A stretch of DNA of 64,000 bases. Origin: Marsupella aquatica (lineage: Eukaryota; Plantae; Marchantiophyta). The translations under genes were made by a program, and so were the position numbers. Below, piece by piece: positions 21,325 to 46,106 of the stretch; positions within the stretch are counted from its first letter, which is position 1; every line of letters begins with the position of its first letter. The notes under the pieces are model-generated. The model was given only the letters and a program-made list of their open reading frames with translations. It was not told the origin of the DNA and ran no database searches. The stretch is from NCBI GenBank assembly GCA_973895155.1, contig OZ316893.1, forward strand, positions 8,929,839 to 8,993,838. Direction: 5' to 3'.

Positions 21325-21623
21325 CTCGGGGGTCTCACTCAATGGAAGCCTCCCCATCACTTGTGACATTTTTAGGCCTCAAACCCCCTAAAATGTAAGT
21401 CAAAAAATTATATTTTTCAACCGCTTTAAAGTTGGAATACTCTTTGAATATTCTAAAAATTTGGTTAGAATGACCCAAATGTTCTTATAAGTCTCAAAAT
21501 TGGATTTAAAAGACCCTATTATTCTTATGAAAAAATTTAAGTCTTCCCTTTGAACCAATAAAATGACTGTATTCCTCATCGCACGTGATCATGTGTCATT
21601 TTTGTGGAAATGAAACCCCCAAG
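21325..21623 (+). mobile_element. hAT-type MITE (family A), 299 bp
   Basis: TIR ctcgggggtctca / tgaaacccccaag; TSD ttgaggag/ttgaagag; aligns end to end with 24778-25073. Confidence 0.85.
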
Positions 21624-23275: not shown

Positions 23276-23599
23276 TCACTTTATTCTAGGTCATAACCAT
23301 TGTACTTTGAATTCCTGCCGTACCCTAGATGTTGGTATGCTCTGCACAATGGCATCTTGGAGTCCCGTGTTATGGAAAGATAGGTACTAGAGAAAATTTA
23401 CATATGGAAAAACAGGTACTAGAGAGTATTGACCTTTCAATGATTGTATAGTGTACAAGGAAGGTACACAAAACTTTAATATATTCCCTTCCCAAGCCCG
23501 GTTTAATCTGACGGGCACCTTGACGCCTTTTCGGGCACGTCAAATTGTCAAATGACGGCCCGAAAACACGCAATTTGACGGATATTCGTGTAGATTCTC

Positions 23600-24150
23600 C
23601 CGAATGAACCCCGACTTCCCCGGACCTTTCGCGAACTCCTCCCGAACACCCCGGACCCGAACCCGAACTCCCTCTGACCCGAACCCGGACTCCCGGGCCC
23701 TTCCCGGACCCTCCCCGGACCCCCACCCGAACCCTCCCCGGACCCTGTCCGGACCCTTCCCGGTAGCTGGGGAAAAGGGGCCGGCCGGGGTAAGGGGGGC
23801 CCGGGGGACGGGATTCGGGGAAGCGGGGACGGGGGGGCGGGGTTTGGGGAGGAGGGGAAGGGGATTCGGGGAAGCGGGGGAAAGGGGGCCAGGATTCGGG
23901 GAAGAGGGGAAGGGGGGGCGGGGTTTGGGGAAGGGGTTACGGTTTGAAGGGGGCCGGGGTTCGGGGATGCGGGGAACGGGGTAGGGGGTTCGGGGAAGGG
24001 GGTTCGGGGAAGGGGGTAGGGGGTTCGGGGAACGGGGTGCGGGGTTCGGGGACGGGGCTCGGGAATTGGCGGCCGGGGAAGAGTTAGGGGCGGGATTAGG
24101 GTTAGGGGGGCGAGATTAGGGTTAGGGGAGGCGCGATTAGGGTTAGGAGC
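23600..24150. repeat. Left subterminal GC-rich array (CCCGAACCC/CCCGGACCC, then GGGTTCGGG; TTAGGG units)
   Basis: C-rich 23600-23762 switches to G-rich 23765-24150; gattagggttagg x3 at ~24094-24147. Confidence 0.8.
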
Positions 24151-24291
24151 GAAGATTAAGAGCTTTAGGAGGGGGAGGAAGTAGATGGTTTAGTATAAGT
24201 AGGAGTCACTAATCCATTTTACTAATCCAAAGTCTCATTGTGTTTCTCTCTCTTGTGGTTTAGCATTAGGGAGAGATCGGAGGGATACATT

Positions 24292-24647
24292 GGAACTCTT
24301 GTACGCGCATGCTTTGGGCTTGGCTCGGTCTGCGATAATTTGTATGAGAAGTTCCTTATATCGCCTTAACAACTTTGCATCATTGTTTTGTTTGAAAGTG
24401 AACTACTTGCGAGTAAAGAGATACCCATGTGCATATGCGAAGAGCTTTGGCTCGGTCTATGATATTTCATATGGGTATCACAATTTCTCGTACATATGTT
24501 CACTTGAAAGATAAACGATTGTGAAGTTATAGATATTACATTAACATAGGTTGAAGTAGGGATGTTGACAAATATAAGAATTTGGGAAACTTTCCTGCGC
24601 ATGCTTTGAGCTTAGGCCCAGTCTGCGATAATTCAGCAAAGTAACCC
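24292..24647 (+). ncRNA. Array of three predicted structured RNA hairpin motifs upstream of the transposase ATG (24292-24355, 24420-24479, 24584-24647)
   Basis: Each copy: variable outer stem, 4-bp stem, UGC-NNN, GAGC-loop-GCUC, GGUC, 4-bp stem', AUAHUU bulge, outer stem'. Compensatory changes are seen (cgca/ugcg vs caua/uaug). Function unknown. Confidence 0.65.
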
Positions 24648-24723
24648 ATTGTACTATTTTTGTTATATCCACAAAATCAAAAGAATCAACCCTTTTATTT
24701 TTTTACCATTGAAAGTCGTAACA

Positions 24724-27580
24724 ATGTCCGATGAAGAGGATTTGCATGAAACTGGATATCATTCCACTACTCCCAGGCTAGGGGGTCTCACTATATGGAT
24801 GCCTCCCCATCCCCTACGACGTTTTTAGGCCTCGGACCCCCTAAAATGTAAGAAAAAAAATTATTTTTCAACCCCTATAAAGTTGGAATATTCTTGGAAT
24901 ATTCCAAAATTTTGGTTAGAAAGACCCTAATGTTCTTATAAGTCTCAAAATTGAATTTAAAAGACCCTGTTGTTCTTCTACAAAAATTCTTAAGTCTTCC
25001 CTTCAAACCAATAAAATGACCCTATCCTTTGTCGCACGTGATGTGCCATTTTTGTGGAAGTGAAACCCCCGAGCTCCCAGGCCTGGTCCAACTCGTGTGC
25101 AAGAACATTCTTCAAAACAATCTCCAGTGTGGAGATATTTTGAACGATGTGATGCGCCTTCAACATGTCATGATGTCAATCGTATCTATCAAAGATGCAA
25201 GTATTGTTTAACATACGTTACTCATCATGCAACACGAGCAAAGGCGCATTTGATGGGAAAAATCCAAAAAGGGGATGCGCCCCCTTGCATGCAACTCTAT
25301 GGTGTCGTCGATTTGGATGCCATCAACATAATGTACAATGTGATAAAGGTTCCACCAACCTTGAAGTACAAACAAAGGGATGGAACTCATATCTTGCGGG
25401 ATGTGAGAGGCCGTAGGCCAAGCGTTGGAAGTTCATATTCGCAAGCATCCACACAAGGGTCAAACTATGTTGACATGAATGATACACATGTGAGGGAAGG
25501 AGATAGGCCAGTAAATCTTCCTAACCCAATTATGGATGCCTATCAAATTCCAAATAGAACAAATTTGGATAAGCTTTGGGCGAAAGCTTTCTACACCAGC
25601 GGTATTCCATTCAATGTTTCAAATAATCCTTTTTTTAGAAGCAGTCATATAGACTTCAAAAGGGATTTCAATGGTTACTCTCTACCTACGATGCGGAATT
25701 TGCGATTGAAATTATTGGAAGACAGTAAGGAGGATCTCACAAAGGACATGACGCAAACTTTAAAGGAGGCAAAACCTTATGGGTATTCTCTTTCTTCAGA
25801 TGGATGGGAAAACGTCCGAATAGAACCTTTGATGAATGTCATGTTGTTGACTTCTAAAGGTGACTTCTTCAAGGATAGTTGGAATGCTGCGCAAGCTGAC
25901 AAGAAAGATGGGAAATATCTTGGCGAGATGTGGTTGAAATACATTGAGGATATTGGTGGAGATCATATTATTCAAATCGTAACTGATGGAGCACCCGCAA
26001 ATCGCGTAGCAAGTTGTGAGGTAGTCATGAAAAAGTATCCTCATGTCACTTGGAGCTGGTGTGTTGCCCACGTGTTTAATTTGCTGCTAGAGGATATGTG
26101 TGGTCACAAGCGTGTAGTGCTAGATGATGATGGACAGAATCCATTCCAAAAGATTTTTAAACGCTTGAGGTGGATAGTAAAAGCAGTTTCATCATCGCAA
26201 AAGCTTTCTGCAATATTTGCAAGAAAATCTCCCGACAAAAAACTGTTGAATCCAAATGCAACTAGATTTGCGACCAATTTCCTAATGGCACAAAGAGCGT
26301 TGGAGCTAAGAGGAGCTTTACAACAGATGGTCATTGATGATATTTGGCAGTCTTATCGTGATAGACTTCCATTGCAACCAAAATCAACTGGACACATGAC
26401 GAGGGGAAAGGCAGACAAACTTAAAATGTGGATACAACAAGATACATTTTGGGTTGAAGTGAAGGATACAGTTAAATTCTTTACTCCGTTGGTGAAGATG
26501 TTGCGAGAATTTGATGGTAATTCTCCGCAATCAGGTTGGTTGTATTGGAGTTTGAAAAGAGGGATTGATGTTTTGAAAGCAAGCATGGAGGATTGTCCAT
26601 TGGTAACAGAGGTATTGAAACCAAAGATACTAAAAGTGTATTTGGATCAAAAAAAATCTCTTACCACTGATTTTATGCTAGCGGAAACATATCTCAATCC
26701 CCAAATGTTTTTTGATGAGGACATAGATGTCGTTGGAGATCCAGAACTCTATAGGGGTTTCAGTGAATACATTGCTAGATATTCAGGACAACAGGTGATG
26801 GAGGGGATCAACCATGATTGTGACATCGAGAACTTATTTCTGCCATCCACAATCAAGCCATTGACGCCCAAAAAACTTTCCCAACACATCAATAGCGATG
26901 GGAGCCCCCCAATCAAGTATAGGTAACGTCAGTCCAGTAGAGTGGTGGCATGCGTATGGTGCAGATTATAAACATTTGAAAATCCTGGCGCGAAGAATCT
27001 TACACCAAAAAGTGTGTGCATGATCAGCTTGCGAGCGAAACTGGAGTTCGTATGGATTTATACATTCCAAAAGTCGCAATCGATTGACAAATGATCGAGC
27101 AAAAGATTTGGTGTTTGTATTTACAAACATGAGGGTAGAGAAAGGGCTAACAAATGTTTGAAACCCGCATACGTTTATATATGAACTTTATGACCAAAGA
27201 AAAAGAACAAATAATGGACCTAGACCTGTCTCCATGGAGTTGTGCGGCAATGAAGAGTACGATGCAACACATGCGGCTCTTGGTGAAGAAGATGTCGAAG
27301 ATTATGATACAATTGATGATGCTGATGAATTGCTACACGGATTTTCACTAGATAAGGATAGTGAGTTCTTGACTCGTATTCCACCAGATATAGACATCAT
27401 TGATGTAGGGGACTGGGAGAATGAAATGGATTTGGAGATGTATCCTACAATTGATGAATCGCAAATCCAAGACGACGAAGATGCATCACTGGACACAAAC
27501 TTTGTGATGCCTTCCCAAACTTTGCAAATGATGTGGACACAAGCAGACCATATTTCGACGAGCAACGCACAGGCATAGCA
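24724..27580 (+). pseudogene. hAT transposase (BED finger + DUF659-type RNase H fold + C-terminal dimerisation domain), disrupted
   Basis: Motifs SPVWRYF..CKYC..AKAHL, LSSDGW, QIVTDGA, WCVAHVFNLLLED, NATRFAT. After a frameshift near 26860-26930 it continues PVEWWHAYG...CA*SACERNWSSY...HSKSRNRL. A MITE sits after codon 18. Confidence 0.92.
24778..25073 (+). mobile_element. hAT-type MITE (family A), 296 bp, inside the transposase ORF
   Basis: TIR ctagggggtctcac / gtgaaacccccgag; perfect TSD CTCCCAGG (24770-24777, 25074-25081). Removing it restores the reading frame. Confidence 0.92.
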
Positions 27581-27998
27581 GGGCATCAGACGGATGGAAG
27601 GACATCAACCTTTTTTCATGGATACAACAATCATGAAGGTAAAACTTCAAACGACCCACATGCAAACTGGAAACACCATGCAGGTCCACCCTTGAATGCG
27701 TATGCAGGGAGAATGAAAAGGATTTGGAGATGTATCCTACAATTGATGAATCGCAAATCCAAGACGACGAAGATGCATCACTGGACACAAACTTTGTGAT
27801 GCCTTCCCAAACTTTGCAAATGATGTGGACACAAGCAGACCATATTTTGACGAGCAACGCACAGGCATAGCAGGGCAGACGGATGGAAGGACCTCAACCT
27901 TTTTTCATGGATACAACAATCATGGAGGTAAAACTTCAAACGACCCACATGCAAACTGGCAACACCATGCAGGTCCACCCTTGAATGCGTATGCAGGG
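27415..27998. repeat. ~293-bp tandem duplication at the transposase 3' end
   Basis: gggagaatgaaa(t/a)ggatttggagatg...gcgtatgcaggg occurs twice, near-identically. Confidence 0.9.
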
Positions 27999-29376
27999 CC
28001 AAGTGTCATGAATCCATATTCGTTGAACAGGCCTATTGGCCTTGGTGGGTTTCAAGGAATATCATCATTTCAAGAAATGTCGCACAATGTTCAGTCACAC
28101 AATCGTGATCCACTCAGTTGGGGCGACAAACAAGACGAGTGGAATGCGCTTTTGCGCAAAAATCGTAACAACAATGCACAAAATTTCTTTTCACAACCTT
28201 GAAGCATCTTTCCATTAGGACAATATCAAGTGTTGCTACTCTTATATTGTCTTAACTGACATAGACAAAATTATAAACAGTTATATTTTTTGTAACATGA
28301 TTGTATTGTCTTGCAGTGTGTTGTACCTTTTATTATTGTACAATTATGATTGAATAATTTATTTCTACTTGCATTTGAGAATGTCATAGAGACACACCAA
28401 CGCAACATGCTTTCCAAATCTCCAACACTGACTATTTCAAAGTAGTCAATATATCACAACAAAGTCTCCCTCAATGCCTCTAATGCCCTAGTACGCTAAG
28501 ACAATTGGGCTGAAACTCCAAGCCACAATAAGTTTAGGGATACCTTGTCGTTGGCCATAGCAGCCGTAGTCCATACCAGCCCCTCTCCATTAATTGGTCA
28601 GTTCATTTCACTATGCGAAGATTTAGTCCAACAATAGAGCACCATCATATTCAATAATAATTAGGTCGAGAGGACGTGATTATTGGACCTGAGAATGTCA
28701 TTGCTTGAATAAACCTTCTCATAATAAAATAAACTTAGTTGAATTTCAAGTTGTAATGAGGGCCCATTTTTGGGGTGGGTGAATGTTGTTGACCGTAGCA
28801 GCTGCACTACTTGAAGTTGGGCAGAGTTTATATGAGTACGAGAGAAGTTGTGAAATGAACACATCGGCCACATAATCAGTAATTTTCTGGTCGGGATCTG
28901 ACCAGAAAATTTGAACTGAGAATTTTCCATATTACCGAGGGACTACATGATCACCCTGCAGTTACCCATGGAATGCAGTTACACACTCACTAATGGTCGA
29001 GAAGCTTCTCAAGCTCACCCATTTATATCTTACGCAATGCTCTTGAAAAACTTAATTAAATATTTCCTTAGGTTTGTTCTTTTTCAGACATGGATATACT
29101 CAAGGCAGGAAGAGCCTTTCTCACTTCGTCTGCACTTCTCCATGGTACACTTATCCATGGTACGCTTATCCGTGGTATGCTGTAGTCTATACGATATAAA
29201 CTAGGCGTGAGTAGAATTGGAAAAACTGTTAGCAATTTTTTTCAGGACCTGGTCATGAAACCAATTAATGGAGTACGGCTGCTACGGCATTAATTTATTG
29301 TACAAGCAATTGGTGGCCAAGGAGAGCAATGCCATGATGATGATCAGACAGGGTCACGGGAATTCTACAAGATCGG

Positions 29377-30867
29377 TGTCGTGGGGATTCTTTGTTTAGT
29401 AAGTTCCTTCTAAGTATAGCTTAGTAGTATAGGATAGTAGTTTGAATTCTCGCATTACATGCAGTCTACAGTGTACATGCTACAGTGTATGATCTACAGT
29501 GTGCATGCTACAGTGTACGATCTACAGTGTGCATGTTACAGTGTACAATCTACAGTATGCATGCTACAGTGTACGATCTACAGTGTGCGTGCTACAGTGT
29601 ACGATCTACAGTGTGCGTGCTACAGTGTACGATCTACAGTGTGCATGTTACAATATACGATCTACAATATGCATGCTACAGTGTACGATCTATAGTGTGC
29701 ATGCTACAGTGTACTGTCTACAGTTGCTCCACTCACGTAACTACAGTACTAGCACACTTACTTGCCTTGGATGTGTGACACATGGCTTCCATCCGTGTGC
29801 CATGCTTGATCCTTGTGCTTGAGGTGTGAGCACTATAAATAAAGAGGAGAGGGGCTCTCTCCCCTCACTCCCCATTTTTCGTCAACTAAGTTGTGAAGCC
29901 TTAAAAACCCATTGGACTTGATGCTCTCTTCTATGATTATAACCCTTATGAAGTAGACCCACTCATGCACTCTTGCTTGGAGCTTCAGCTCGGCCAGGGA
30001 TATTTTGTATGAGTCGGACCTTCAGAAAGTGTTGTCATTTGATAGGAGATGGTTATTAAATTCTAAAGAGTTGAAAAGTGCTCAATAATGCATTGACATC
30101 ATATGCTCCTTTTTTTTGGTGAAATCCTTATGAAGTAGACCCACTCATGCACTCTTGCTTAGAGCTTTGGCTCGGCCAGGGATATTTTGTATGAGTTGGA
30201 CCTTCAGATAGTATTTTCATTCAAAAGAAGATCAACCTATTAAGATAAACATTTGCATGTATATACTTAGAGTTAACTCAATGCATAGTATTTGTTTGAA
30301 ATGAATGATCTTTTTGTTGAATGATTCTATATCTTTCCATTAAAAATGAAAATTAGTTGGATGGAATATTTGACAGTAAGATAATGCCCAGACCAGTACC
30401 TATTCTTTCTCTCCCTAATCCTTTCCTTATTAGAATTCATGTACTCCAAAAAGAGATAATGCGTTAGCATATGACTTTTCACTTTGGAGAAGCATTTGCA
30501 ACTGCGATGTTAAATTCAATAGAGCCAATTGTGTACCCTTATGTAGTTTACGAGCAGGATTGGGCTTGCACAATTTTTATCTTGTATTGAGATGGATCTC
30601 AACAAACCTCCCTCCGATGAACCTCCTGTTTCTTTCTCGTTGGGAGATATTCGTTTTGTAACTCGACCCAAGGTAGCTGCCAAGGAGGTAATTGTCCGTA
30701 GGTATGGAGAAAAGGGTTATGATGTTGTGCTTTCATCCATAGAACCGTTCCTTGTGGTGTCTGCTACCCAGTCTAGAATAGTAATCATGATCTTAACTTA
30801 AGTTCTCTCTTGACACTAGCAGCCATGGCCCGGTGCTTCCTCAAGAACCACATTTTCCCCCCAGACA
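29377..30867 (+). repeat. 5' LTR (1491 bp) with ctacagtgt minisatellite, TATA (tataaata ~29835) and two hairpin motifs
   Basis: Highly similar to 36792-38241; begins tgtcgtgggg and ends cccagaca. Confidence 0.95.
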
Positions 30868-30870
30868 TGT

Positions 30871-30888
30871 TGGCGACCATACTGGGGA
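30871..30888 (+). promoter_or_regulatory. Primer binding site, tRNA-Arg-like
   Basis: TGGCGACCATACTGGGGA lies 3 nt after the 5' LTR. It is complementary to a tRNA 3' end ...GGUCGCCA; the Arg assignment is from memory. Confidence 0.7.
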
Positions 30889-30965
30889 AACTTGAGGCTA
30901 GTGTCAAAGATAAAAGGATATTGATGAGAGAAGAAGCTTGATAGAAAATAGAAGCAAAGGAAAAG

Positions 30966-33293
30966 TTGTTCACAATGGTAGGAGGAACTATGGAAGAGAT
31001 GACTGAGATGTTTATGAGTTTGATGGAGGCTGAAGCACGAAGAGAGGCACCTGAGAACCAGAAGAAGGAGGAAGCAAGTCGTATGACCAAGTGCTTACAA
31101 GCTTTGCTAGCAAAGTTTGGGCAGTTCGACGGGAGAAGAGCAACCCGGTACTTGAAAGAGTATTGGACAGAGGTAGCCATCCACAAGATCAGTGAGAAGG
31201 TTGCCATTCATGAATTTGCATCATTGGTGGAATCAGAATTGAAAGACATCATCACCAAGATTGCTGAAGGAGCCAAAGAGGATTGGAAAACATTTGAAAT
31301 GAGGGTGAGAGAGGAGTTTCGATTTGAAGATCCAGATCGAGTTACTGCAGCCACGTTCCTTGGTTGGGTACAAGAGAAAAACAAGAAATTGGGACCTCAA
31401 GAATTATTGAGGGAATTCAATAGGCGCTACCATCAGCTATCTTCAAAAGATCTAACAATAATCAATCTCAGAAGAGGGGGTCTTTTGATCCGTGCAGCTG
31501 ATATACCTTTGAGGGTAGAGTTGGACAATGCTCTAGATGTTATTGCTCCAGATGCGGATGAAGTCACTTGGGATCAAGCAAAAGCTGCAATCCACAAGGT
31601 GACAAAGCAAAGGAGGAGAAGGGAGGTCGATCAAGAGGCGGAAGCTCCCATTCTAGACTTGAGAAAAGTCAGAGAAGAAAGCACTACTGATGGAGGAGAA
31701 AAAGAAGTCAAAAGCAGCATCACAGAAGGGGGCGACATAGCATCATTGACAGACATGATAGCAAAGCTTGCTCTTTCAATTCAAACCTTGGAGAACAAAA
31801 ACCCTGGTGGAACATCACTAGCAGCCTTGAATAAAAACTGGAATTGTTTGTGGTGTGATAGCAAGGAGCATCACAGAAGGGATTGTGGAGAACTGACAGA
31901 AGCATTGCGACTTCGACATGTCAAGTTTGTGGAAGGGAAGATTGCATTTGTTGATTCTGGAGAGCCAATACCAATGAATGTGAACCGAGGAGGAATGAAG
32001 CAAATTGTGGAATAGAGAATGAGAGAGAAAGTTTCTAGTGCTGCAGCGATGTATGGTGATCCTTCTGTCTTCAGTCTTCAGGTTAAGAAGGATTTGCCTT
32101 CCATAGAACATCTTGATATTATTGAGAGGAAGAGACTAGCGGAAAGTATCCGGAGAAAATCCGGTTGGGATGTGCCTGTGTTGATCAACTCTATCACTGC
32201 GGAAGTAGGAGCAGCATGGAATGCTGCTGTGGAAGATAAGAGGAGGTATGAAGGCACTTCTATGGAAGAAACCCAAAGGGGAGGAAAACAACAGAGACCC
32301 AAAGCAGGACCTCGCTTCACACGTCAAGCCAAAGAGAAAGGAGTTCGATTTGAGGAGCCTAAAGCGTCCACAAGCAAGAGTCAAGAAGAAATCTCCCATG
32401 GAAGCTCAATGGATACTGACACCCCAAAGAAAGGTGCTAAGAAGAGCCCAGGCTATTTGCTTACTAGAGAGGTGGAGCAAACTATTGATCCAGAAGTGAT
32501 TGCCGAGAAATTTTGGCAGCAAGAGGCTAGGGGGTTCACTAATGGAGAACTTTTTGGAAGTCTTCGTTTAGACTTACAAGGCAAGATCTTGGATAGGGCA
32601 AGAAGAAAAAGGGTTTACAAGGAGGGACCTCATGCACTAACTGCCAAGATTCTTAGCTATGACTATGAAGATGATCTAGAAGATGACGAAGAAGAAGAAG
32701 AATTGGAGGGAAATGTATTTTGTGCTACCATGAGTCACCATGAAGCAACTTCAGGTATTCATGGCAATGTAGCCCTACATGAGGTGGATTTGCGGGAAAC
32801 AATCCGACCGTATTGGACAAGAGCTTGCCCGGAGATTGAGGTGCAATTGCTTGGTGCTGAAGGAGGAATTTGGGCACTCCTAGATTCAGGATCTGAGTTG
32901 AATCTAATGTCTAAAGAGACATACCAAAAAGGGCATTGGAAGATTGATTGTGACATCAAATGGAATGTCAATTCAGTGGGCACAAGGGCAAATCCCTTGT
33001 GGGGAGCATGTCCCGAGATCATGATCAAACTTGGGAATGTGGTAGAAGCTATCAATGTCTTTGTATTTGAAAAACTTCCATATCCTTTTATTCTTGGTGT
33101 TCCTTTCATCACGGAATTACGAGTAGAGACCATGGTACTTGACGATGGTACTCACATGGCAAAAGTGAAGAGCAAGGATGACTTGAAGAAGATTCAATTT
33201 CCCACACTTCGGCCAGGTAGTACAAGAGATCGTCGGGAATTAAGAACAATGGAGGAGTACAGGTCCGATCAGAGTATGAAGGGTTTCGACTAG
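30966..33293 (+). pseudogene. Gag-protease ORF with an in-frame stop at 32013
   Basis: Zinc knuckle CLWCDSKEHHRRDC; aspartic protease ALLDSGSELNLM...FILGVPF. ORFs 30966-32015 and 32019-33293 share one frame. Confidence 0.88.
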
Positions 33294-33334
33294 GCGTCCC
33301 GCTAAGAGAAGCGAGCAGGCAGGACGCCAAGCCT
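33281..33334 (+). promoter_or_regulatory. Predicted -1 programmed ribosomal frameshift signal
   Basis: In-frame slippery heptamer G GGT TTC (33281-33287), then stem ggcgtcc/ggacgcc (33293-33328). The -1 frame is open into the pol ORF. Confidence 0.75.
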
Positions 33335-36300
33335 TTAGTCTCGTCTATGGAGGTTCATTCCTCTTTTGTTGGTGTGAGTAGGACTAGTGAAGTGAGCTAT
33401 TTTCATAAAGGTGGTGTGAAGAGGCGAGCTCAGAAGATGTTGGAAAAGAAAGAAAACGATTTGTTCACATTAGGAGTGTTGAAGGTTGAAGAGAGAATAG
33501 AAGGAGTACTAGAGGAAAGGGGATTACCACCCTCTCTTCGAGAGATTATTGGAGACATTGAGGAAGAAAATGGAGAAGTGGAGGTGGAAAGGGATGTGTA
33601 TGGTTACATTGAGCACTTTGCAGAAGTACACACAAAGTACAAAACAATGGACAAGAAGGTGCGACCTGCAGCAGTTCCCTTGCCATCTGAGGCTAAGGAA
33701 ATATTGAAGTGAGCAAAGGAGGAGCCAAGTCTTAGAGATCATACTAAGATTGGGCATAAATTCACTGAGGAGACGTTGCTCAAATTAAAGGTTGGTGATA
33801 AGGGTTTACTAGAGGAAGAGAGAAGAGCCTTCAAGGAGATGATCATCAAACATGAAAAGGCCTTTTCTTTTTCCATTGGAGAGATTGGGTGTGCTGATCC
33901 AAGGGAGATCACACCAATGGTAATCTTCACTGTTCCACATGTTCCTTGGAACCTTAAGCCAATTCCTGTGCCACGAGCACTGATGCCTAAATTGGTGGAG
34001 TTACTCAAGGAGAAGTTAGATGCCAAAATCCTTGAGAGATCAAACGCTCCGTACTCAAATCGGTGGTTCACGGTGAGAAAGAAGAATGGAAAGCTAAGGT
34101 TCATTCAAGACATGCAGCCACCAAACAAGGTCACCATAAGGAATGTGGGCACAGGACCTGTGGTGGATGAGTTTGCTGAGGAGTTTGCTGGGAGAGCAAT
34201 CTACTCCATTGGCGACTTATACTCAAGGTATGATCAGTTTCAGCTTGCCCAAGATAGCAGAGACATTACTGCTATGAGAACGCCACTAGGGTTGTTGAGA
34301 ATGTGCACCCTTCCTCAAGGTGCAACTAACTCAGTGGCCCATATGCAAAATGCCATGAATAGGATTTTGCAACCGTTTGTTCCAAAGAAGACTAGACCTT
34401 TTCTTGATGACATCCCCATAAAAGGGTGTTTGTACAAGGAGAGGGATCAAACACTTAGAGGAGATGGTCTAAGACAGTTTGTGTGGGAGCACTTACAAGA
34501 TGTGGGAGCTATTCTACAAAGACTCAAGGAAGTAGGAGTAACTCTATCTGGAGAGAAGTCAGCTTTCGGGTTACAAGAGATCATGGTAGTAGGGCAAGTT
34601 TGTGGCCCTTATGGAAGAAGCCCATGTGAAGCAAAAGTGGATGCCATCAAGGATATGGAAAACTGCAGAACTACCTCAGAGGTAAGGAGATTTCTTGGGG
34701 CCTGCATCTTCTACAGAATATGGATACCACATTTTGCTCACATTGCAGAACCTCTCTATGATCTTCTAAGGAAGAATGTGAGGTTTGTATGGAGTGCAGG
34801 CCATACAAAGGCTATGCAACAATTGAAAGAAGCTTTGACTAGCTCACCGGTATTACGACCTCTGAAGTACAATGGTATTGACCCAATAATTGTGACCATT
34901 GACTCAAGTCCTCATGCATCTGGATGGGCAGTTGGGCAAGATGAGGAAGGACAAAGGTTTGCCGCACGGTTTGGGGCAAAAATATTTACAGAAAGACAGA
35001 GGCATTATCCTCAAGTAAAACGAGAGTTGTGGGGTGCGAAGGTAGCACTTCGCCAAGAAAGAGACTATTTGATAGGAGCAAATGTAATACTGGAGACAGA
35101 TTGCCTACCCTTGTTGGGAATGATAGCCAATTGTGATACTCCAGATATTGCAATGCTTCGATGGATAGCATTCATCAGAATGTTTAATCCTGAGTTAAAG
35201 CACATTGCTGGGAGAGATAATCCAGTAGCTGATATGCTTTCCCGAGCTCGCTATAGGGACGAGGAGGACCAAGGAATGTGCCTTCATAGTACATATGGAG
35301 AAGATGAAGAGGAATTGAGGTTTGAAGAGGAAGCTTATTCTGGGGAATTGTTACAGATAGGACGTTACCTTGCCACCTTGCAGAAAGATTCAACATGGAG
35401 TAAGCAAGACTTCAACAAAATTCGGAAGAAGTCTTACCAGTTCATGATAAGAGGTGGATCCCTTTGGAAGCATCCAAAGAAGAAGGGGCACATACTTCTA
35501 AGGGTCATTGGTAGAGATGAAGAGAAACACAAAATTTTGCATGACTTACATGATTCCGACGTGGCAGGACATAAGGGGCGAGAAGCTACTTACGAAAGGA
35601 TTCGAAGACTATATAGGTGGCAAGGAATGTATGTAGATGTAAGCAAGTATGTGGAAACTTGCAAAGTGTGTCAACTCTACTCGAAGGTGAAGCATAGAGA
35701 TGGACTAAAACCCACGTACCCTCTTTCCCTACACTACCAATGGGCTGTAGATGTGGTACACATGCCGAGAGGAGTAAGAGGAGCCAAGTACCTTGTCTTG
35801 GCTATTGAGGACCGCTCCTCTTACATTGAAGGTAGAGCCTTGACAACAAATAAGACCGAGGCGATATGTAGATTTGTATTGGAGGACATCATTGCAAGGT
35901 ATGGATGCTTTGATCGCATGAGGGCAGACAGAGGGGAGCTCAATGCAGAGGAAGCAGTCGCATTTTTCAGGAAGTTTAGGGTGAATCTCAAATTGACAAC
36001 TACTTACAATCCTGAAGGTAATGGCAAGAGTGAACGGGGACACCAACCAATAGTGAATGCCTTGATTAAGGAATGCAAGGGAAGAATCTCACTTTGGCCA
36101 AATTTCCTTTCCCTAGCACTTATGGCACACCGAACAACTTGCACATCGGTAACAGGATATGCACCTTCAGAGTTGATCAATGGTCAACTTCCACTCATGC
36201 CAATAGAAGAAAATATTAACAGTTGGAGGGCAATAGAGTGGGAGGATGGTGTATCTCAAGAGGATTTGATTCTTCGTCGCATAGAACAGTTTGATCACAC

Positions 36301-36718
36301 TCCTACAAAGATCCAGGGCGCTATTAAACAATTGAAGCAAAAGAGAATGGCTAACAAATCCCGCTTTGACAAGTCCCATCGATTGAGACCCAAGACAATC
36401 CAAGAAGAGGATTGAGTCTTAGTCTCTGAAGGCGGTCTCGGACAAGATCACTCCTCGATCAAGAAATTTGCACAACGTTGGAGGGGCCCATTTGTGATAG
36501 TTACTACTCACCCAAATTCCACTTACACTCTCCGTGAATTGGATGGAGCAATTCATCGTGTGCCTTATGCAGGAAAAAGAGTGAAAATATTCAAAAGGCA
36601 AACACGTTTTTTAGAGGAAGATCCCATCGATTCAGACCAAGAAGAGGAAGAAGAGGAAGAAGAGGAAGAAGAAGATGAAGAACCTGAAAAGCAAGAGGAA
36701 GAAATATTCATTGAGTGA
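33281..36718 (+). pseudogene. Pol (RT-RNase H-integrase) with in-frame stops at 33710 and 36413
   Basis: RT motifs KLRFIQD, DLYSRYDQF, LPQGATNS, FLDDIPIKG. RNase H IDSS..., ETDCLPL, NPVADMLSR. Integrase HHCC (LHDSDVAGH...CKVCQ), VDVVHM, RADRG, NGKSER, GPF; acidic tail. Confidence 0.92.
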
Positions 36719-36791
36719 AGTACAAGATTAGTAGGGGTGACTATTAAGTGTGGTCCAGACCGGAGGTTGCACAGGTTTAGTAAGGGTGATA

Positions 36792-38241
36792 TGTCGTGGG
36801 GATTCTTTGTTTAGTAAGTTCCTTCTAAGTATAGCTTAGTAGTATAGGATAGTAGTTTGAATTCTCGCATTATATGCAGTCTACAGTGTACATGCTATAG
36901 TGTATGATCTGCAGTGTGCATGCTACAGTGTACGATCTACAGTGTGCATGTTACAGTGTACAATCTACAGTATGCATGCTACAATGTACGATCTACAGTG
37001 TGCGTGCTACAGTGTACGATCTACAGTGTGCATGTTACAATGTACGATCTACAGTATGCATGCTACAGTGTGCATGCTACAGTGTACTGTCTACAGTTGC
37101 TCCACTCACGTAACTACAGTACTAGCACACTTACTTGCCTTGGATGTGTGACACATGACTTCCATCCGTATGCCATGCTTGATCCGTGTGCTTGAGGTGT
37201 GAGCACTATAAATAAAGAGGAGAGGGGCTCTCTCCCCTCACTCCCCATTTTTCGTCAACTAAGTTGTGAAGCCTTAAAAACCCATTGGACTTGATGCTCT
37301 CTTCTATGATTATAACCCTTATGAAGTAGACCCACTCATGCACTCTTGCTTGGAGCTTCGGCTCGGCCAGGGATATTTTGTATGAGTCGGACCTTCAGAA
37401 AGTGTTGTCATTTGATAGGAGATGGTTATTAAATTCTAAAGAGTTGAAAAGTGCTCAATAATGCCTTGACATCATATGCTCCTGTTTTTTGGTGAAATCC
37501 TTATGAAGTAGACCCACTCATGCACTCTTGCTTAGAGCTTTGGCTCGGCCAGGGATATTTTGTATGAGTTGGACCTTCAGATAGTATTTTCATTCAAAAG
37601 AAGATCAACCTATTAAGATAAACATCTGCATGTATATACTTGGAGTTAACTCAATGCATAGTATTTGTTTGAAATGAATGATCTTTTTGTTGAATGATTC
37701 TATATCTTTCCATTAAAAATGAAAATTAGTTGGATGGAATATTTGACAGTAAGATAATGCCCAGACCAGTACCTATTCTTTCTCTCCCTAATCCTTTCCT
37801 TATTAGAATTCATGTACTCCAAAAAGAGATAATGCGTCAGCATATGACTTTTCACTTTGGAGAAGCATTTGCAACTGCGATGTTAAATTCAATAGAGCCA
37901 ATTGTGTACCCTTATGTAGTTTACGAGCAGGATTGGGCTTGCACAATTTTTATCTTGTATTGAGATGGATCTCAACAAACCTCCCTCCGATGAACCTCCC
38001 GTTTCTTTCTCATTGGGAGATATTCGTTTTGTAACTCGACCCAAGGTAGCTGCCAAGGAGGCAATAGTCCGTAGGTATGGAGAAAAGGGTTATGATGTTG
38101 TGCTTTCATCCACGGAACCGTTCCTTGTGATGTCTGCTACCCAGTCTAGAATAGTAATCATGATCTTAACTTAAGTTCTCTTTTGACACTAGCAGCCATA
38201 GGCCCGGTGCTTCCTCAAGAACCACATTTTCCCCCCAGACA
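36792..38241 (+). repeat. 3' LTR (1450 bp)
   Basis: Copy of the 5' LTR with a shorter minisatellite. Confidence 0.95.
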
Positions 38242-38545
38242 TCGGTCACCGAATTGATATGTAGACGCAAAATACAGTCACCGATTTCAAGTCGCTAAAA
38301 ACATCTAACTTTGTCACTATGAAAAGATATGTGAAAGCAACAGAGCACCAAGACTGAGTAGAGTACAACCATTTGACTATTCGAACGATTGTGTACAGGT
38401 ATGAGGATTATAGACCGGCAATATGCTAACTATGTACACACAGCAATAGCGGAAATTATGATGAAAGACGAGAAAACATCGGACTTAGGTACCCATCCTT
38501 CTACAAAATCATTCTCAATTTATTGTCAAAGTTCACCCTTTTATA

Positions 38546-38800
38546 TCCTCTCCTTTCTGAATTCCAATTCGAGGTTGGACATCCTCTCGTCAGCTGGTCT
38601 CCACCCTTTTAGCTGCTCTTCACGCGAACCAAAGGCAACGCCTCTGGATTCCTCAAATACTATGAATGATGCATTGAAATGAAACAGGTTCGTGAATTCT
38701 AAAGGCTGTCATCTCGGTTCGTGTGAAGAGCAGCTGAAATGGTGGAGACCAGCTGACAAGAGGATGTCCAAACTCGAATTGGAATTCGGAAAGGAGAGGA
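38546..38800. repeat. Long inverted repeat (85-bp arms 38546-38630 / 38716-38800), foldback
   Basis: Arms are reverse complements with 6 differences by eye; further imperfect pairing continues toward the loop. Confidence 0.9.
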
Positions 38801-38828
38801 GAGGCAGGTGCAATTGTGCAAATTAATG

Positions 38829-39620
38829 CCATAGGCCGTAGCAGCCGTACTCCAATAATTGGTCAGTTCATTTCACTATCAGAAGATTGATTCACGCAAC
38901 GGAGCACCGACATATTCAATAATAATAAAGTTGGGAGGACCTGAAAATTTGACCTGAGAGTGCCGTTGCTTGAATAAACCTTCTCATAATGAAATAAACT
39001 ATGTTCAAGTTCTAATCAGGACCCATTTTTGGGGTAGGCAAATGTATTGGCATTGGCCTCGGTTCCCATGCAAATGAATGTCATTGGCCGTAGCAGCTGC
39101 GCTACTTGAAGTTGAGCATAGTTTATTTGACTATGAGACAATTTATGAAAGCATCGGATCGATGACATACTCAGTAATTTTCTGGTCGAAGGACCTAAAA
39201 ATTTAACCTGAGAGTGCCGTTGCTTTCATAAACGTTCTCATAATGAAATAAACTCTGTTCAACTTCAAGTTGTAATGAGTGCCCATTTTTGGGGTGGGAA
39301 AAGGAGTACGCGTTGGCCTTGGTTTGCATGCGCATGAATGTCATTGGCCGTAGCAGCTGCGCTACTTGAAGTTGAACAGAGTTTATTTGAGTACGAGAGA
39401 AGTTGTGAAACCAACGGATCGACGACATACTCAATAATTTTCTGGTCGAAGGACCTGAAAATTTGTCCTGAGAGTGCATTTGCTTTCAGAACTTCTCTTG
39501 TACTCAAATAAACTCCGTTCAACTTCAAGTTGTAATGAGAGCCCATTTTTGTGGTGGGCAAAGGAGTAGGCGTTGGCCTCAGTTTGCATGCGCATGAATG
39601 TCATTGGCCGTAGCAGCAAT
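38829..39620. repeat. ~255-260-bp tandem units, related to 28554-28920
   Basis: ggacct(g/a)aaaattt..cctgagagtgc starts at 38937, 39191 and 39451; a diverged copy is at ~28672. Confidence 0.85.
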
Positions 39621-40432
39621 AGCGGAAAAAATGATGAAAGACAGGAAAAGTGAGTGGACTTAGGTATACATCCTTCTACAAAATCATTCTCAACTTGGGC
39701 GGCTAAAACCATTGCGATGTTGACTTTGTTGAACTCATTGTGCTACACGATCTTCTTTTGGAAATGATTTCAGAGAAGGATCAGTACCTGAGTCCACTGT
39801 GCTACCGTCTCTCATCACGTCTATTTACAACCATCAAATTACGACCATCAAATTGGTCTCGAAGCTCCGTTTCTTTCACAAACCTTCTCATGTAGGCAAA
39901 TTTCTGTGAGTTTACTTTGTAATTATGCCCGCGACCGGTGTACATAACCTAAGGCGCTGACATACCTGTAAACATCTATACTGAACAACATTCCCACTCT
40001 TTCAATCATTAGAATCCTAATTTGTTACGGTGCCATTTTGTGTGTCCAAAAATATGATTGTGAGCCCAACAATATGCTTCCAAAACCTATGGCTGATTGG
40101 AGGATGGAGTATTCTTACGAAAATACACATTCTCCAAAAGGCGACGCCATGCCCCCAATGAAAAATATATGTACTCAATGGGATATGCAATGTAATGTCA
40201 CTCCAAAATCTCTTTACCAATTACAAGTTGAAAATAATTGTCAAAGAGGATATGCCGCTTCTATTTTAACAAAAGGTCTCTAATAGTAAGTGCATGAAAA
40301 TAACATCAAAATGTAGAGACTATTGGTTTCAGTTCCTTTTGTTGTTGTTGTCGTCGATGGCTTTTGTTTTCACCTCTGCCTGTTGTTGACATCGTCGATG
40401 GCGCCGAATGGATCGTTGCAAATTTTGCTCAT

Positions 40433-42281
40433 CTATTGATGGTTGGTTGGCTGCCGCATATTGTTTCCACTCATAAAGTCGACCACTGAATAACAATCTG
40501 TCAAATTCTCCATCTGACAAATTATATTCATTGATTGTGAAATGTTCAATGGAGTTTCATCTATTTGCATCGCAAGTATAGTCTCTTTAGTCATTTCTTC
40601 AGTGTTTTGTTGAGTCTCCATTGATGTCATTTGCTTCAACAACCCTCGTTGCTCATACTCGCGTTCATGAAATGGTGTGCGACACCAATATTTTTGGCTT
40701 TTCTTCAACTATTTAGACAAGCAAGCATGATGCCATATATGACCGCATGTTCCCAACATGGAAACAGATTCAGGGCCCCAAGGATATAGGCACCAAGTAC
40801 ACTTGTCGTCTTTTTCACAAACAAATGCTGCCATAGTTTCATCCTTTTTTCACTTATAAAAAAACCTCTCAATACCTCCTGCGTCAACCTCCACATCTGG
40901 GAAAAGATTGCTGTGCCCTGTAGGATCTATGATTTGCATGTGAACAAAATTTGGCGATGATAATTCTCCTTCCCCTTTGTTTGACCCCATCCCCAAAGCA
41001 CCATTGTTAAATTCTTGCACCTCTTCATGAAGATTTGATATGATGACTGCTTGCATTGTAAGTTCACTTTTAAGATCATTAATGATCTTGTCCTTCTCCT
41101 CAAGTTGTGCCAGTTCATTGCATTGAAGTTCTTTTTCAGCAAGTTGTTTTGTCAACTTATTGATTTCTTCCATCTTGTCAAACAATTGACACTTGTACAA
41201 CATCACTTCAAAATTGGTCGTCGGCTCGGTCTGCTTCTTCTCTAGTGATCTCATCTTTAAATCAGCTTGTTGCAATTGCGACTTAAACTTTTTGATGCTG
41301 CCACATTCACATAGCTCCACTACATACTTCGTGCGGAGATTTGTCTCAATCACCTCAACAACATCTGCCCCCAAGCTCTTGCATATGTTGTGCAGGTTGA
41401 ACTTATCCTTGTTAGCATCAGTAACATTGTTGTTCTTTGCATGTGGAGTTCTACTCCCAACACCTACAAGAATTGGTTTTTTGGTGTGCGTGGACTCCAC
41501 ATTGGTTGGTGGTGCTGCACAGTCAGGCATGGAGACTCGGGGAAGTACAGCCGCTTTCCCCTTCTCATGCGCATAATTATCCCTCCCCAGTCTCATCTAG
41601 CTTTCTTTTGGATCCCTTTTTGGAAGTCTCCATGGAAGGGTCCTTTGCAATAATTGTATTCCTATTCGTTGCAATCGCAACCACTGATGGATGCACCTGA
41701 TGAGTCAGCTTGCCAACAATGTTTTCCCAATGATAATCCACCTTCCACTTGAGAATAAATTCAACAATCAGACATCGGATAAAAGGAGGATAAACGGAAC
41801 TCATTTTCGTTTGGGCTTTGTGTGGAGCAAACTCTTGATATCGTTGCTGCCAATGTGATTTAACACCTGCATGTGTTACTTTGGACATGGTAAAATTTTT
41901 TTGCGCCCATGATCTTGTTGCCCAAAGATCCGGATCGTGAAAAACTTTTTGTGCTAATGGCCAAAAGTCTTTCTTTGGCATCAACATCTCCAATTCCTTT
42001 GCATTCATAGGCCATTCGTCATGGGGAGGATTTACATTAGGCGTTAATATACTCCATTCATCCTTCATACCCTCATCTTCCCATCTTCTTGTGTTTGGCG
42101 CCGGTGTTCCATCAACCTTGGGTTTAGCCTCATAGTGAATGCCAATGGTTGTAAGATTATCCAACACAGTATTACGAAGAGCTTCATCGTCACAATAGGA
42201 TCCTTGACCATCTTGCATGGTAGGATGTTGTGTTGTGAACTCTTTGTCTTCATCATCAGAAGACAATTCCCATCGTACCAT
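40433..42281 (-). pseudogene. Cargo gene: unknown N-domain + coiled coil + RING-H2 finger (putative E3 ligase), disrupted
   Basis: ORFs 41577-42332 and 40850-41596 join by a frameshift. Reading through stops in the second frame gives CTWCLYPWGPESVSMLGTCGHIWHHACLSK*LKKSQKYWCRTPF (40670-40801), continuing to 40433. Heptad-rich region INKLTKQLAEKELQCNEL. Confidence 0.75.
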
Positions 42282-42515
42282 GTTTGCGATGTGTACAAAA
42301 GGTCTACGATATTTGACAATGTACAAACACATTTAGCACAATTTTGGGCATTCATGACAAAGTTTGATAGAATATTATGAACAAAATACAGAACATTGTA
42401 ATTGACATACAATGAATAAATATATAATCCTTAAGGTGACCTTTACAAAACTATGTAAACCCTAATCTCTAAGATATGGACTGTTGTGCAAATGCAATGT
42501 GCAATCTGGAAACGT

Positions 42516-44049
42516 TCAAACTATCTTCAAACTCCAAAAAGCACAATCCATTCTTTTCTTCGCATCCGTGGCCATCATTTCACAAATTATGACATCCAAT
42601 TTGGGGCCATGCACTTGTGCACTCCAACCCCTTCCCAAAAACCGTGAACTCTTAGACATTCCATCCCAATTCTCTGTCAACAATGTCTCAAAAATATTCC
42701 CCAAAGCATATATATTGGTATTTTTGTTAAACTCTATAGGGGTAGGTTGAACAAGCTCCGGAGCCAACTGTGGAAATTGTTTTTGGTATGCTGCTGCTAT
42801 TTCTGTTGCTGTGGGCCACATCCGATTACCTGGTGATTTGCACTGTGATTTATGCTTAGACAAGCCAAAATCACATAAACCAACATACACCTTAATAGCC
42901 ACATCGTGCTCGTGATCAAAATGAAGAAGGATGTTTCCAAAGTGAAGATCACAATGAAATCGATCATGCTCATGCAAGTATTGCAGTGTCTCCAGCAAAG
43001 CCAAGACGATTCCCAAATGGTTCTCCAACAAGAGTTTCTTCTCCGAAATGAACTTGAAATCAAGGTTCGTCGTGATCTGTGCCTTCCCCTTGCTCTTTGA
43101 CGATATGCCGCACTTATCAATAAAGCTACCAAAATCACCTCCATTGTAGTGATCATAAATAAGTTTTGGCGGATCCTCAATAGTCAACGCAAGAGCTCCA
43201 ACGATTCCCTTATGATTCAGTCCTCCCATAAGCACTTCTTGTAATGCGTCAGTTCATCTCTTATGCTTGTCTCCATCCTTGAACCGTTTTGCGACTAAGA
43301 TCACGTTGACGGGAGTGAGAGGACAATCTAATATACGACAAGTGTATACCTCTCCTTGGATTCCTTTCCCAATGCGACGTGTGTTGTGCACCTGCTCACG
43401 TTTAAGAAAATAGATACTCCTAACCTCTGGAACTACACGCGATGGACGTGTTCCTTTTCAAGCACTTTTGATGCTGAGATCCCCAAAGTGCACAATCTCG
43501 TTATCATATTTGACATTGCTATCAGATTTCGCCATTGCCAACTCTTTACTCCACTTCACTAGCAATTCTCTCTTGTGTGTGTGTACATCCCGGGGTTTCC
43601 CAAACTTGGAGAAGCATGTTTCCCGGTTTCTCAGTTTCATCTTCAAATGACTTTATTTGCTCTCGTGTGAAATTATCCTCCTTCTGTACGCTTTCCCGCA
43701 TACAACGGGTTATCTCACCAAGAAAGTTCTTGTATCCTTTCTGTCTGTGTCTTGTGAACTCCCTCTCGAACCCGTCCACCCCATACTGTTTTGGTTGAGT
43801 GTAGCGATAAAGTATCTCTTTCCATATCGACACTACCACATTGTGTCAAACCTGTTTTGCCTCTTTGTTTGCCCCCTTCCATTTTTGTTTCTCGGCCATT
43901 TTGCTAGGATTCCTAGCATGTTCGAGAGTATTTCGAGCATTCTTCAATGCGTCTAGAGCAACAAGATTCGGCTCATATCCCTCATTCACATGTTTTGTGA
44001 TCGTCTCCAACACTTGCCTATACTCTAAACTAAAATTATTGATGGCCAT
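42516..44049 (-). pseudogene. Cargo gene: protein kinase with a ~220-aa N-terminal region, disrupted
   Basis: Manual translation: IGKGIQGEVY, LVAKRF, ALQE, HCDLHFGNILL, CDFGLSK, LAPELV, NIYALG. Several premature stops and one frameshift near 43600. Confidence 0.85.
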
Positions 44050-44255
44050 GTTTTCCCTTCACAAAAGGAATATGTGAGGGAGGAACAAACTCTTACCGGG
44101 ATTTAAATAAAATCCTTCCAATAAGGTTTCAACGGCCAGCCTGAAAATTACAAGTCGTATTGTTATTATCTCTTCCCGGTTTGTTTCTCCCATGCATTAT
44201 GTATTTTTATTGCACACATGATTTTAATTACCTTTAAATATAACAACAATAAAAG

Positions 44256-44617
44256 AGAAAGACAACAGTTGTGAAATATCGCAGACCGAGCGGACGCTCA
44301 AAGCATGCGCACAAAAGTTCTTTTCTTTCAAAGTTGTTATATTCCTGCTTTGACATATGTGATTTGGTGTCTATAATTTAACACTCATTTGTAATTCAAG
44401 TAAAAATATTCTCGGCGAATCGTGGTATCCATGCAAAGTATCGCAGACCGAGCCGAAACTCTAAGCATGCGTACATGGATTCCTCTATCTCTGCAAATGT
44501 TTTACTTAATGAACAAAGGAGACTTAATTGTTAAGGTGATATTAAGAAATTATTGTACGGAGTATCACAAACCAAACCGAGGCTCAAAGCGTGCACGTAC
44601 AAGTGTTTCTTTATATC
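44256..44617 (-). ncRNA. Array of three predicted structured RNA hairpin motifs upstream of the cargo genes (44269-44314, 44424-44483, 44538-44617)
   Basis: Same consensus as 24292-24647, on the - strand; e.g. ggaauccaugua cgca ugcuua gagu uucg gcuc gguc ugcg auacuu ugcauggauacc. Confidence 0.65.
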
Positions 44618-44659
44618 CCTCTATTTGGCTCTAAGGTTAGGGTTTAAAACACAAAGAAA

Positions 44660-45075
44660 ACTTCAAAAACCACAAAACAAAACACAAACAAACAAAAACA
44701 AACCAAAAACCAAAACCAAAAACCAAAACCAAACACTTACCTCCTCCTCCTCCTCCTCCTCCTCCTCTCCTCCTCTTCTGCAAAACCAAAAATGAGGAGG
44801 GGAGGAGGGATCTCCTCCTTTTATCCTCTCCCGAGCACCCTCTCGAGCCTTTCCCGGCCGGCCTCCTCCTCCAACCCTAAACCGTGAAACCCTAATCCTC
44901 CGAGCCTCCCATCCCAAACCCCAAACCGGACCCCGAACCCCAAACCCCAAACCGGACCCCCACCCGAACCCCACCCGGACCCCACCCCGAGCGCCTCCGC
45001 CCTAGACCCGGACCCGATTAGTCATCCGGACCCCCACCTGAACCTCCTCCCGAACCCGGCCTCCCGAACCCGAAC
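44660..45075. repeat. Right subterminal array: (A/C)-rich tract, (CCT)n, CCCTAA and CCCGAACCC/CCGGACCC units
   Basis: Mirror image of the left G-rich array. Confidence 0.8.
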
Positions 45076-46106
45076 CGCGGCCGAACGTTTCCTTTCCCGG
45101 ACTGCTTCCAAACCCGGGTGCCGGGTTGCCAATTTGCCGCTCAAAAACGCCCAGTTTGACGGGCAAGGTTAAACCGGGTTCCCAAGAGAGAAATGAATAG
45201 TTGTACCCCACTGGAGGAGGGCCTTTGAGAGAAAGAGAGGAGGGAGGGGAATGAAGGGATAGAAATAAAGGAAATATGAAATAAACTGCAATTAGATGGA
45301 CCGTTTTTCCAATTTTGGGGTTTATTATTTTTATTTGTTTAATCTTTATGAGAGATCCCAAAATTTGTTATTCCAACTAAACTTCCAACTTTTTACTTAG
45401 AAATACTTTTTCAATGAAGGCCAATGAGACCAAGCTCCAAACAATTTTTCTCCCCAAGACCTGGTTTGCTTGACATGTCTTGGCATCTCGATTAGTCTTA
45501 TTCTGGCTTATGCCCATATTATTTTCCTAGCCGGGCGCTCAGCACGCTCTTTGCCCCCATTTGCACCTTTTGCCGCCCACATTTGTTCCATCTTTCATAA
45601 AATTGACAATGAAGAGCTCTTGCCAAACTCTTGCCCATACTCTAAATACCCATCTGAGTCTTTTGCCCCCTACTTTGTGTTCACTTGAATTTCACAATTT
45701 GATTGCATAAAATTATGTGCAATTTGAACAAGATATGCGCAATGATAACACTTTTCACAATAAAATGAGCAACAATAAATGATGACCATTTGTCAAAATC
45801 CAACTGCCTTTTTCCAAACAGTTTGATCCACCCAAAAAACCTGTTAATCCCCTCATCCCTGCCCTTCTTGCATTCCCTATACACCTTGGCTCACCATTTG
45901 CACCTCCACCCTCCTTAATGCACTCTCCATGCCAAAGCCCCATTGTCTTCGTGGTGAGCTGGAGACAAGGGTGGTGACAGCAAAGGGTGGGGCAAGGGAG
46001 CGACAGGGTGCGAGGGGGGGGGGATGAAAAGATGAAAAGGGGGAGGGAAATGAAAAAAGAAGTTATCCTATAAGACTAACCATGGACTTGAACCCTCCCC
46101 AACATC

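Follow-up and report, generated by a model that had tools for sequence, protein, structure and literature searches.

Plant hAT elements are regarded as one-gene elements. In fungi, multi-gene hATs and transposon-borne kinases are already known: in rust fungi, hAT7 elements are described with a TET/JBP gene and IS3EU elements with a TET/JBP gene and an alpha-kinase gene opposite to the transposase, and one accessory gene is reported as common to hAT, Dileera and other superfamilies (Kojima 2025, PMC12730594). The account of a 9.5-kb DUF659 hAT in Pseudocercospora fijiensis includes copies of histone H3 (PMC6710886), and an isoform of Zisupton with an F-box has been reported (PMC12062965). Mutator-like elements (MULEs) carry extra open reading frames (ORFs), mudrB in MuDR and vanB and vanC in VANDAL/Hiun, of which one is described as needed for integration and one as anti-silencing (PMC6446971). 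Here we analyse a 64,000-nucleotide stretch of the genome of the liverwort Marsupella aquatica (contig OZ316893.1, positions 8,929,839 to 8,993,838; hereafter the window), in which a dead hAT element carries a protein kinase gene and a RING gene beside its transposase. This plant hAT with kinase and RING genes is a variant of the multi-gene elements known from fungi. An earlier sequence-only reading of this DNA had stated that autonomous hATs normally encode only a transposase, to which hAT7 with TET/JBP (PMC12730594) and the histone H3 hAT (PMC6710886) are exceptions as described. A review of giant transposons has no whole-word match for hAT or kinase (PMC6431247). We found no plant hAT with a kinase or RING gene, or with a hairpin of the kind described below, in the open literature; subscription journals, Repbase and the supplements of PMC12730594 fall outside that scope, and the last two may list such elements.

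The element spans 23497-45178 of the window (Table 1). Its left end is the 10-bp terminal inverted repeat (TIR) CCCGGTTTAA, which recurs as its reverse complement at the right end, and TTCCCAAG, the target-site duplication (TSD) of 8 bp, abuts both TIRs on the outside. Taken alone such a pattern can mislead, because a search of the window for every combination of a 10-bp inverted with an 8-bp direct repeat returned two structures, of which the second is probably chance (60337-63128, with a left end that falls on a splice acceptor of an EF-hand gene running past it). The TIR 10-mer by itself is not beyond chance either (two matches at up to one mismatch versus 3.0 expected), and six of 150 Markov-resampled windows contain at least one TIR and TSD structure (mean 0.04). 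That the pair arose by chance, and that unrelated insertions merely piled up here, is nevertheless hardly credible, as the two repeats bound long ends that are homologous in inverted orientation and flank a hAT transposase. The subterminal regions 24280-24635 and 44621-44272 are 69% identical in inverted orientation over 360 bp (E 1e-31), and from either end a GC-rich array, three hairpins and an ATG follow in the same order, the two GC arrays sharing words. The inverted homologous ends, their common layout and the transposase inside lend the TIR/TSD pair independent support. An 8-bp TSD and short TIRs with subterminal repeat arrays are features of the hAT superfamily. Units containing TTAGGGTT, which we take to be telo-box-like, stand near the left GC-rich array, and that array likely provides binding sites for the transposase. 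When a nested Gypsy-type element and a miniature inverted-repeat transposable element (MITE) are subtracted, 12,509 bp remain. We are all but certain that this is one hAT insertion unit with three genes. The sequence-only reading had described the same TIR and TSD, a transposase on the plus strand, a kinase and a coiled-coil/RING protein on the minus strand, a size of about 12.5 kb without the nested retroelement and MITE, and ends that each run from a GC array through three hairpins to an ORF. The boundaries, the three genes, the size and the end layout agree with our results, but the word giant does not suit an element that at 12.5 kb is large.

The transposase matches DUF659 (E 9e-29) and Dimer_Tnp_hAT (E 1e-9) and keeps the catalytic D, D, CxxH and E of a hAT-type DDE transposase, and its closest kin are the DUF659-type hAT transposons (Ac/Tag1-like). 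Intact relatives have 905-934 residues. The copy in the window is dead and has decayed by C-to-T changes. The MITE sits in the 5′ end of the transposase gene, whose ATG is at 24724 and which is further damaged by two TGA codons, a frameshift near 26840-26870 and a 292-bp duplication. In the kinase gene a deletion near 43590-43610 shifts the reading frame, and there are four premature TGA codons, each opposite Arg in an intact relative. The RING gene has two frameshifts and two stops, the stops opposite Trp. That stops and frameshifts break all three genes had been absent from the sequence-only reading. The observed/expected ratio of CpG is 0.54-0.70 in the three element genes versus 0.83-0.89 in two host genes, and that of CHG is 0.63 versus 0.98-1.22, which is the pattern expected from methylation. 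The nearest named relatives of the transposase, kinase and RING proteins all come from the leafy liverwort Calypogeia fissa (69-75% identity for the transposase and 81% for the kinase), in which transposase pieces are dispersed over eight accessions on five contigs in a partial list. A scan of viral contigs with the transposase gave none (0 of 4).

With other DUF659-type hATs the element shares the 8-bp TSD, short TIRs, GC-rich subterminal arrays and a DUF659 plus dimerisation domain, whereas two further whole genes, homologous promoter-like ends and hairpin arrays set it apart from the usual members. Its likeness to the rust-fungal elements lies in an accessory enzyme gene that is carried by autonomous DNA transposons and, as described there, passed between superfamilies, and in a kinase opposite to the transposase (PMC12730594). 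Unlike those elements, it has a eukaryotic-type kinase with an N-terminal domain of its own, a RING gene, an 8-bp TSD and a plant host. It resembles the P. fijiensis hAT in large size, 8-bp TSD and non-transposase cargo, but the cargo described for that element derives from a known host gene and has degraded (PMC6710886), whereas here named proteins yielded no donor and selection acts on the kinase family. Extra ORFs besides the transposase recall MuDR (mudrA/mudrB) and VANDAL/Hiun, which however have a Mutator transposase and unrelated accessory proteins; the roles of the accessory proteins described here are proposed from sequence. In place of the Mutator transposase and VANC-like protein by which a VANDAL element would be recognised, the window has hAT domains, a kinase and a RING protein. 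If true, a plant hAT that has its own conserved kinase family and a RING protein would bring signalling enzymes in among the few accessory proteins known from transposons (VANC, mudrB, TET/JBP, SET and alpha-kinase).

The kinase (Pkinase, E 1e-14 in the window) has few close relatives. Among 1047 candidates 14 pass, namely four C. fissa proteins and ten others, and none of these 14 is a named gene from another plant. A profile search of 1.84 billion representatives gave 16 matches at E ≤ 1e-30 and 65 at 1e-10, and 31 of the best 150 matches share 40% identity or more with the family, mostly as short pieces. Intact members are uninterrupted, intronless ORFs of 540-553 residues (636 in one call), whose N-terminal domain is helical, about 200 residues long and has a basic patch. 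The catalytic motifs and fold are those of a eukaryotic protein kinase. HxDxHxxN, DFG and APE are kept in 10 of 10 near-full-length relatives, the Gly loop and VxK were matched in eight of the ten, a fixed search window having missed two 636-residue rows, and residues 232-541 of a structural model (mean predicted local distance difference test score, pLDDT, 63) superpose on kinases with a best Z of 12.6 and a root-mean-square deviation of 5.3 over 219 aligned residues. Fold searches single out no kinase subfamily, with many ties at the top, and an atlas search returned generic kinase matches. Viral kinases match weakly (13-18% identity) and we do not claim a viral origin; scans with the kinase found no locus in viral contigs (0 of 9) or in prokaryote genomes (0 of 7). 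A haspin-like reading of the catalytic loop was dropped because DFG is present and no haspin stands among the matches listed. More distant intronless kinases (P0049, P0055, P0060, P0072, P0078 and P0089) have the same layout of a helical N-terminus and a WNGG/YNGG hinge, and are perhaps sister families in other transposons.

A scan of metagenome contigs with the kinase alignment reduced 70 pattern matches to two loci, L001, which is too short for context, and L002, a 5.8-kb contig that ends inside the unit. The ratio of non-synonymous to synonymous substitution rates (dN/dS) is 0.15-0.19 in all three pairs of the window, L001 and L002 kinases, and by this measure the family is under purifying selection. 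In L002 the hairpins precede an intact kinase that shares 49% identity with the query, and behind this kinase a DUF6729 gene (E 2e-11) stands in tandem. Positions 30-148 of L002 match 44548-44430 of the window (119 bp, 70%), extending past the hairpin core, and the window kinase leader matched in this way is also homologous to the window transposase leader. Since the same leader precedes a kinase only 49% identical, leader and kinase would form an old unit tied to transposon-end sequence. This cassette looks older than the M. aquatica element and appears to have been exchanged between transposon families, and L002 is possibly another transposon superfamily bearing it. The DUF6729 gene of L002 (2527-5821) is intact-looking, probably spliced, and lies directly behind the intact kinase. 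Its motifs recall the D..D(xCC)..DxxH..E core of KDZ (Dileera/Zisupton) transposases, of which it may be one; a Protein Data Bank search with its protein gave zero matches, and a single-sequence model reached a pLDDT of 39.

The kinase is quite probably a long-term transposon gene. In C. fissa it occupies ten accessions on eight contigs, one of them full length, in two separate subfamilies (quick tree, 29 rows), a count that polyploidy of this species could inflate. Copies so dispersed and mostly fragmented would be less expected of a host gene than of a gene belonging to a transposon. Pack-type capture, by which kinase and RING genes would be neutral copies of host genes, might draw on both being pseudogenes here and on databases that could lack the host donors. 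We regard it as very unlikely, given that they are whole ORFs rather than fragments, that named proteins yield no donor for them, that the leader of the 49%-identical relative is homologous to the transposon end and that broken copies are dispersed in C. fissa; moreover, a Pack-type element is non-autonomous and lacks a transposase, whereas a transposase gene is present here. A family of its own, purifying selection and the same leader in a distant relative indicate that the kinase is something other than an ordinary host gene captured once. Of the sequence-only reading's suggestion that the cargo looks built-in, the part concerning the kinase is supported; its proposed dN/dS check gave purifying values for the kinase, with no ordinary host gene match among named proteins. 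The effect on host silencing or transposase turnover which that reading also proposed is conjectural. A fixed kinase and RING module is not borne out, as the L002 kinase has no RING gene beside it.

The RING gene is a single gene composed of two ORFs and a RING piece (42281 to about 40329). The zf-RING_2 match lies below the cut-off in the window (E 5e-4) and improves to E 6e-6 in an intact relative, with scores of 26.8-28.1 bits against a cut-off of 27.3; intact relatives present eight ligands and the Trp of the C3H2C3 pattern, but CxC as the last pair. An atlas search with the N-terminal domain gave zero matches. We lean slightly towards a long-term transposon gene here too, and the RING gene would be a looser partner than the leader and kinase are to each other. 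The pair might instead be a selfish poison and antidote, the kinase harming those haploid spores or cells from which the element is lost, and the RING protein degrading the kinase in carriers. Meiotic drivers are reported to be carried by a giant fungal transposon (PMC8092012), and such a system would suit a transposon-borne pair of genes that stand in tandem, lack introns, are lineage-restricted and are under selection, but the intact L002 kinase stands without a RING gene beside it and both genes have been lost in the window copy, which makes this explanation improbable.

The hairpin is a more testable novelty than the accessory proteins. Twelve copies were aligned (three from the left end, three from the right, four from the long terminal repeats (LTRs) of the nested Gypsy element and two from L002), a third L002 copy that is cut by the contig end being left out. 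The 54-nt hairpin has a 9-bp stem, a 6-nt 3′ bulge, 4 bp, a 1x1 loop, 3 bp, a 2-nt 5′ bulge, 4 bp and a UNNG-like loop. Pairing holds in 93.6% of 220 cells versus 27-43% in slid controls, 12 of 20 pairs change on both sides, none of 500 shuffles reaches the covariation score, and RNAalifold gives the same fold. In every context the hairpins stand upstream of an ATG and in sense; the sense, ORF-ward strand folds better in six of the six tested, with z from -1.4 to -3.1 in five. The many G-U changes and the better folding of the sense strand thus suggest that the hairpin acts as RNA. At the right end it is predicted to sit in an intron of the 5′ untranslated region (GTAAGT donor at 44740, AG at 44057). 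In 71 kb of sequence, Rfam gave no match at the gathering threshold (best E 0.13, in the left leader) and the covariance model raised only the 12 training hairpins above noise; the hairpin pattern was found in none of the viral contigs or prokaryote genomes. In the LTRs the hairpins lie downstream of a TATA box, and the likeness to the LTRs is limited to the hairpin.

The bulged U is nearly invariant, and the stem pair with which it would form a triple, A-U in TAR-like hairpins, is A-U in seven of 11 copies and G-U in three. In their leader location and in a bulged U on the 5′ side that G-C and A-U pairs follow, the hairpins recall the arginine-sandwich hairpins of HIV TAR and 7SK as described in PMC6189040. 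They differ from TAR in the pair before the bulge, which is U-G in nine of 11 copies where TAR-like hairpins require a Watson-Crick pair, as well as in a UNNG-like loop, an extra 6-nt 3′ bulge and an arrangement in arrays of two or three. No homology is claimed, and the TAR likeness is a lead only. A covarying hairpin absent from Rfam and found in the leaders of this DNA transposon, of another DNA element and of a retrotransposon with LTRs would point to a regulator common to transposon classes.

Our favoured explanation, held with moderate confidence, is a dead 12.5-kb DUF659-type hAT whose kinase and RING proteins served as accessory proteins aiding its own expression against host silencing. 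The counter-silencing role itself is tentative and taken singly rather doubtful. Both ends may derive from one ancestral end, each holding a promoter and a hairpin leader, so that the left end would drive the transposase and the right end the kinase, with the RING gene behind it. The transposase would have attached to the GC arrays and mobilised the element in its entirety. MuDR is transcribed convergently from both ends, and transcription here may likewise have run inward. Once transcribed, the hairpins would fold and be bound by a protein that favours the expression of transposon RNAs, and on this proposal that is why a retrotransposon and another element also carry them. The kinase may phosphorylate, and the RING protein ubiquitinate, host silencing or transcription factors, with the leader and kinase cassette passing between transposon families. 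A bolder version, which we consider a long shot, is an RNA-guided trans-activation shared by liverwort transposons, in which the basic N-terminal patch of the kinase would bind nascent leader hairpins and switch expression on. It would act in the manner of Tat/TAR/P-TEFb within one protein; on the same reading the cassette would move between hAT and KDZ-like elements, and a Gypsy retrotransposon would have hijacked the system by taking the hairpins into its LTR.

Several observations weigh against the favoured explanation. Next to the L002 kinase stands a DUF6729 gene that does not resemble hAT (hhalign probability 0.3%), and a RING gene is absent from the 5.8-kb contig. In C. fissa the ten kinase accessions and the single RING accession never adjoin the eight transposase accessions in lists that are incomplete, the nearest gap between cargo and transposase being 317 accession numbers, and a second complete copy of the three-gene element was not seen. 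Kinase dS is near saturation (pS, the proportion of synonymous differences, about 0.7), and a low dN/dS would equally fit a host gene. RING relatives number only three among 1575 candidates, at 47-67% identity, and CxC stands in place of the usual final pair of zinc ligands. The hairpin copies share a common descent and the structure was derived from these same copies, while the sixth hairpin in the strand test, cut off-register, gave z 0.1. One alternative is a one-off composite, in which the left half of a plain hAT and the right half of another element (leader, kinase and RING gene) moved once as a macro-transposon with no stable three-gene lineage. The separate placement of the genes in L002 and C. 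fissa speaks for it, as do ends that are merely 69% alike and a repeat-rich, unexplained middle. The TIR, GC-array words and hairpin spacing are however common to both ends, and transposase (69-75%) and kinase (81%) are about equally close to their C. fissa counterparts, so that a composite seems unlikely to us, though it merits consideration. The single three-gene element remains the reading we prefer.

Table 1. Features of the hAT element, its nested repeats and the related L002 leader (window positions unless noted)
Feature	Position	Strand	Basis or remark
Left 8-bp TSD	23489..23496		TTCCCAAG repeat
Left 10-bp TIR	23497..23506	+	CCCGGTTTAA
GC-rich subterminal array, CCCGAAC/CCGGACC units then G-rich counterparts	23600..24065		repeat and sequence comparison
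Three 20-bp units containing TTAGGGTT	24087..24147	+	repeat and sequence comparison
Three bulged hairpins (24291, 24417, 24583), transposase leader	24291..24649	+	alignment and covariance model
hAT transposase pseudogene: BED-like finger, DUF659, D-D-CxxH-E, dimerisation domain	24724..28202	+	domain search and alignment
MITE, 296 bp, 8-bp TSD CTCCCAGG	24778..25073		further copies at about 21324-21623 and 46107-46209
Tandem duplication, 292 bp, 97%, in transposase tail	27415..27998	+	within the transposase pseudogene
Single unit, 72% related to central 260-bp array	28563..28921		sequence comparison
Nested Gypsy-type LTR retrotransposon, 4-bp TSD TCGG	29377..38241	+	LTRs 29377-30867 and 36792-38241
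Two copies of the same bulged hairpin, 5′ LTR	29955..30203	+	again 37328-37576 in 3′ LTR
Inverted repeat of 112 bp (38546-38800) and a 260-bp x2.6 array that contains palindromes	38546..39617		repeat and sequence comparison
RING gene: unknown N-terminal domain, coiled coil, RING-H2-like finger, conserved tail	40329..42281	-	single gene; about 630 aa in intact relative
Kinase pseudogene: helical N-terminal domain and eukaryotic-type kinase	42462..44049	-	about 550 aa in intact relatives
Three bulged hairpins, kinase leader	44258..44610	-	alignment and covariance model
Right GC-rich subterminal array with telo-box-like words	44830..45110		repeat and sequence comparison
Right 10-bp TIR	45169..45178	-	reverse complement of CCCGGTTTAA
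Right 8-bp TSD	45179..45186		TTCCCAAG repeat
Hairpins in L002 leader	92-322 of L002	sense to kinase ORF	alignment

The nested Gypsy element has LTRs that diverge by 1.5% (Kimura two-parameter distance 0.015) and contain 28-bp tandem arrays, and its gag-pol has a few stops. Both LTRs contain a short ORF starting MDLNKPP (30592-30801 and 37965-38174) that has no Pfam match; this start fits what we take to be the DLNxxP EAR repression motif. Units akin to the central 260-bp palindromic array occur in both orientations (38546-39617, 28563-28921 and 29260-29288), and the array is perhaps another nested element. Tandem arrays of 19 bp and 36 bp, also in both orientations, lie outside the element at 20102-20252, 47024-47670, 49786-49903 and 54681-54945 and are likely the ends of other repeats. 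On the host side, two genes have fungal or microbial-type domains, a DUF7025/AAA ATPase (9074-11233, with a weak match to a fungal lid domain) and a maltose acetyltransferase (5337-5945), for both of which an origin by gene transfer is possible.

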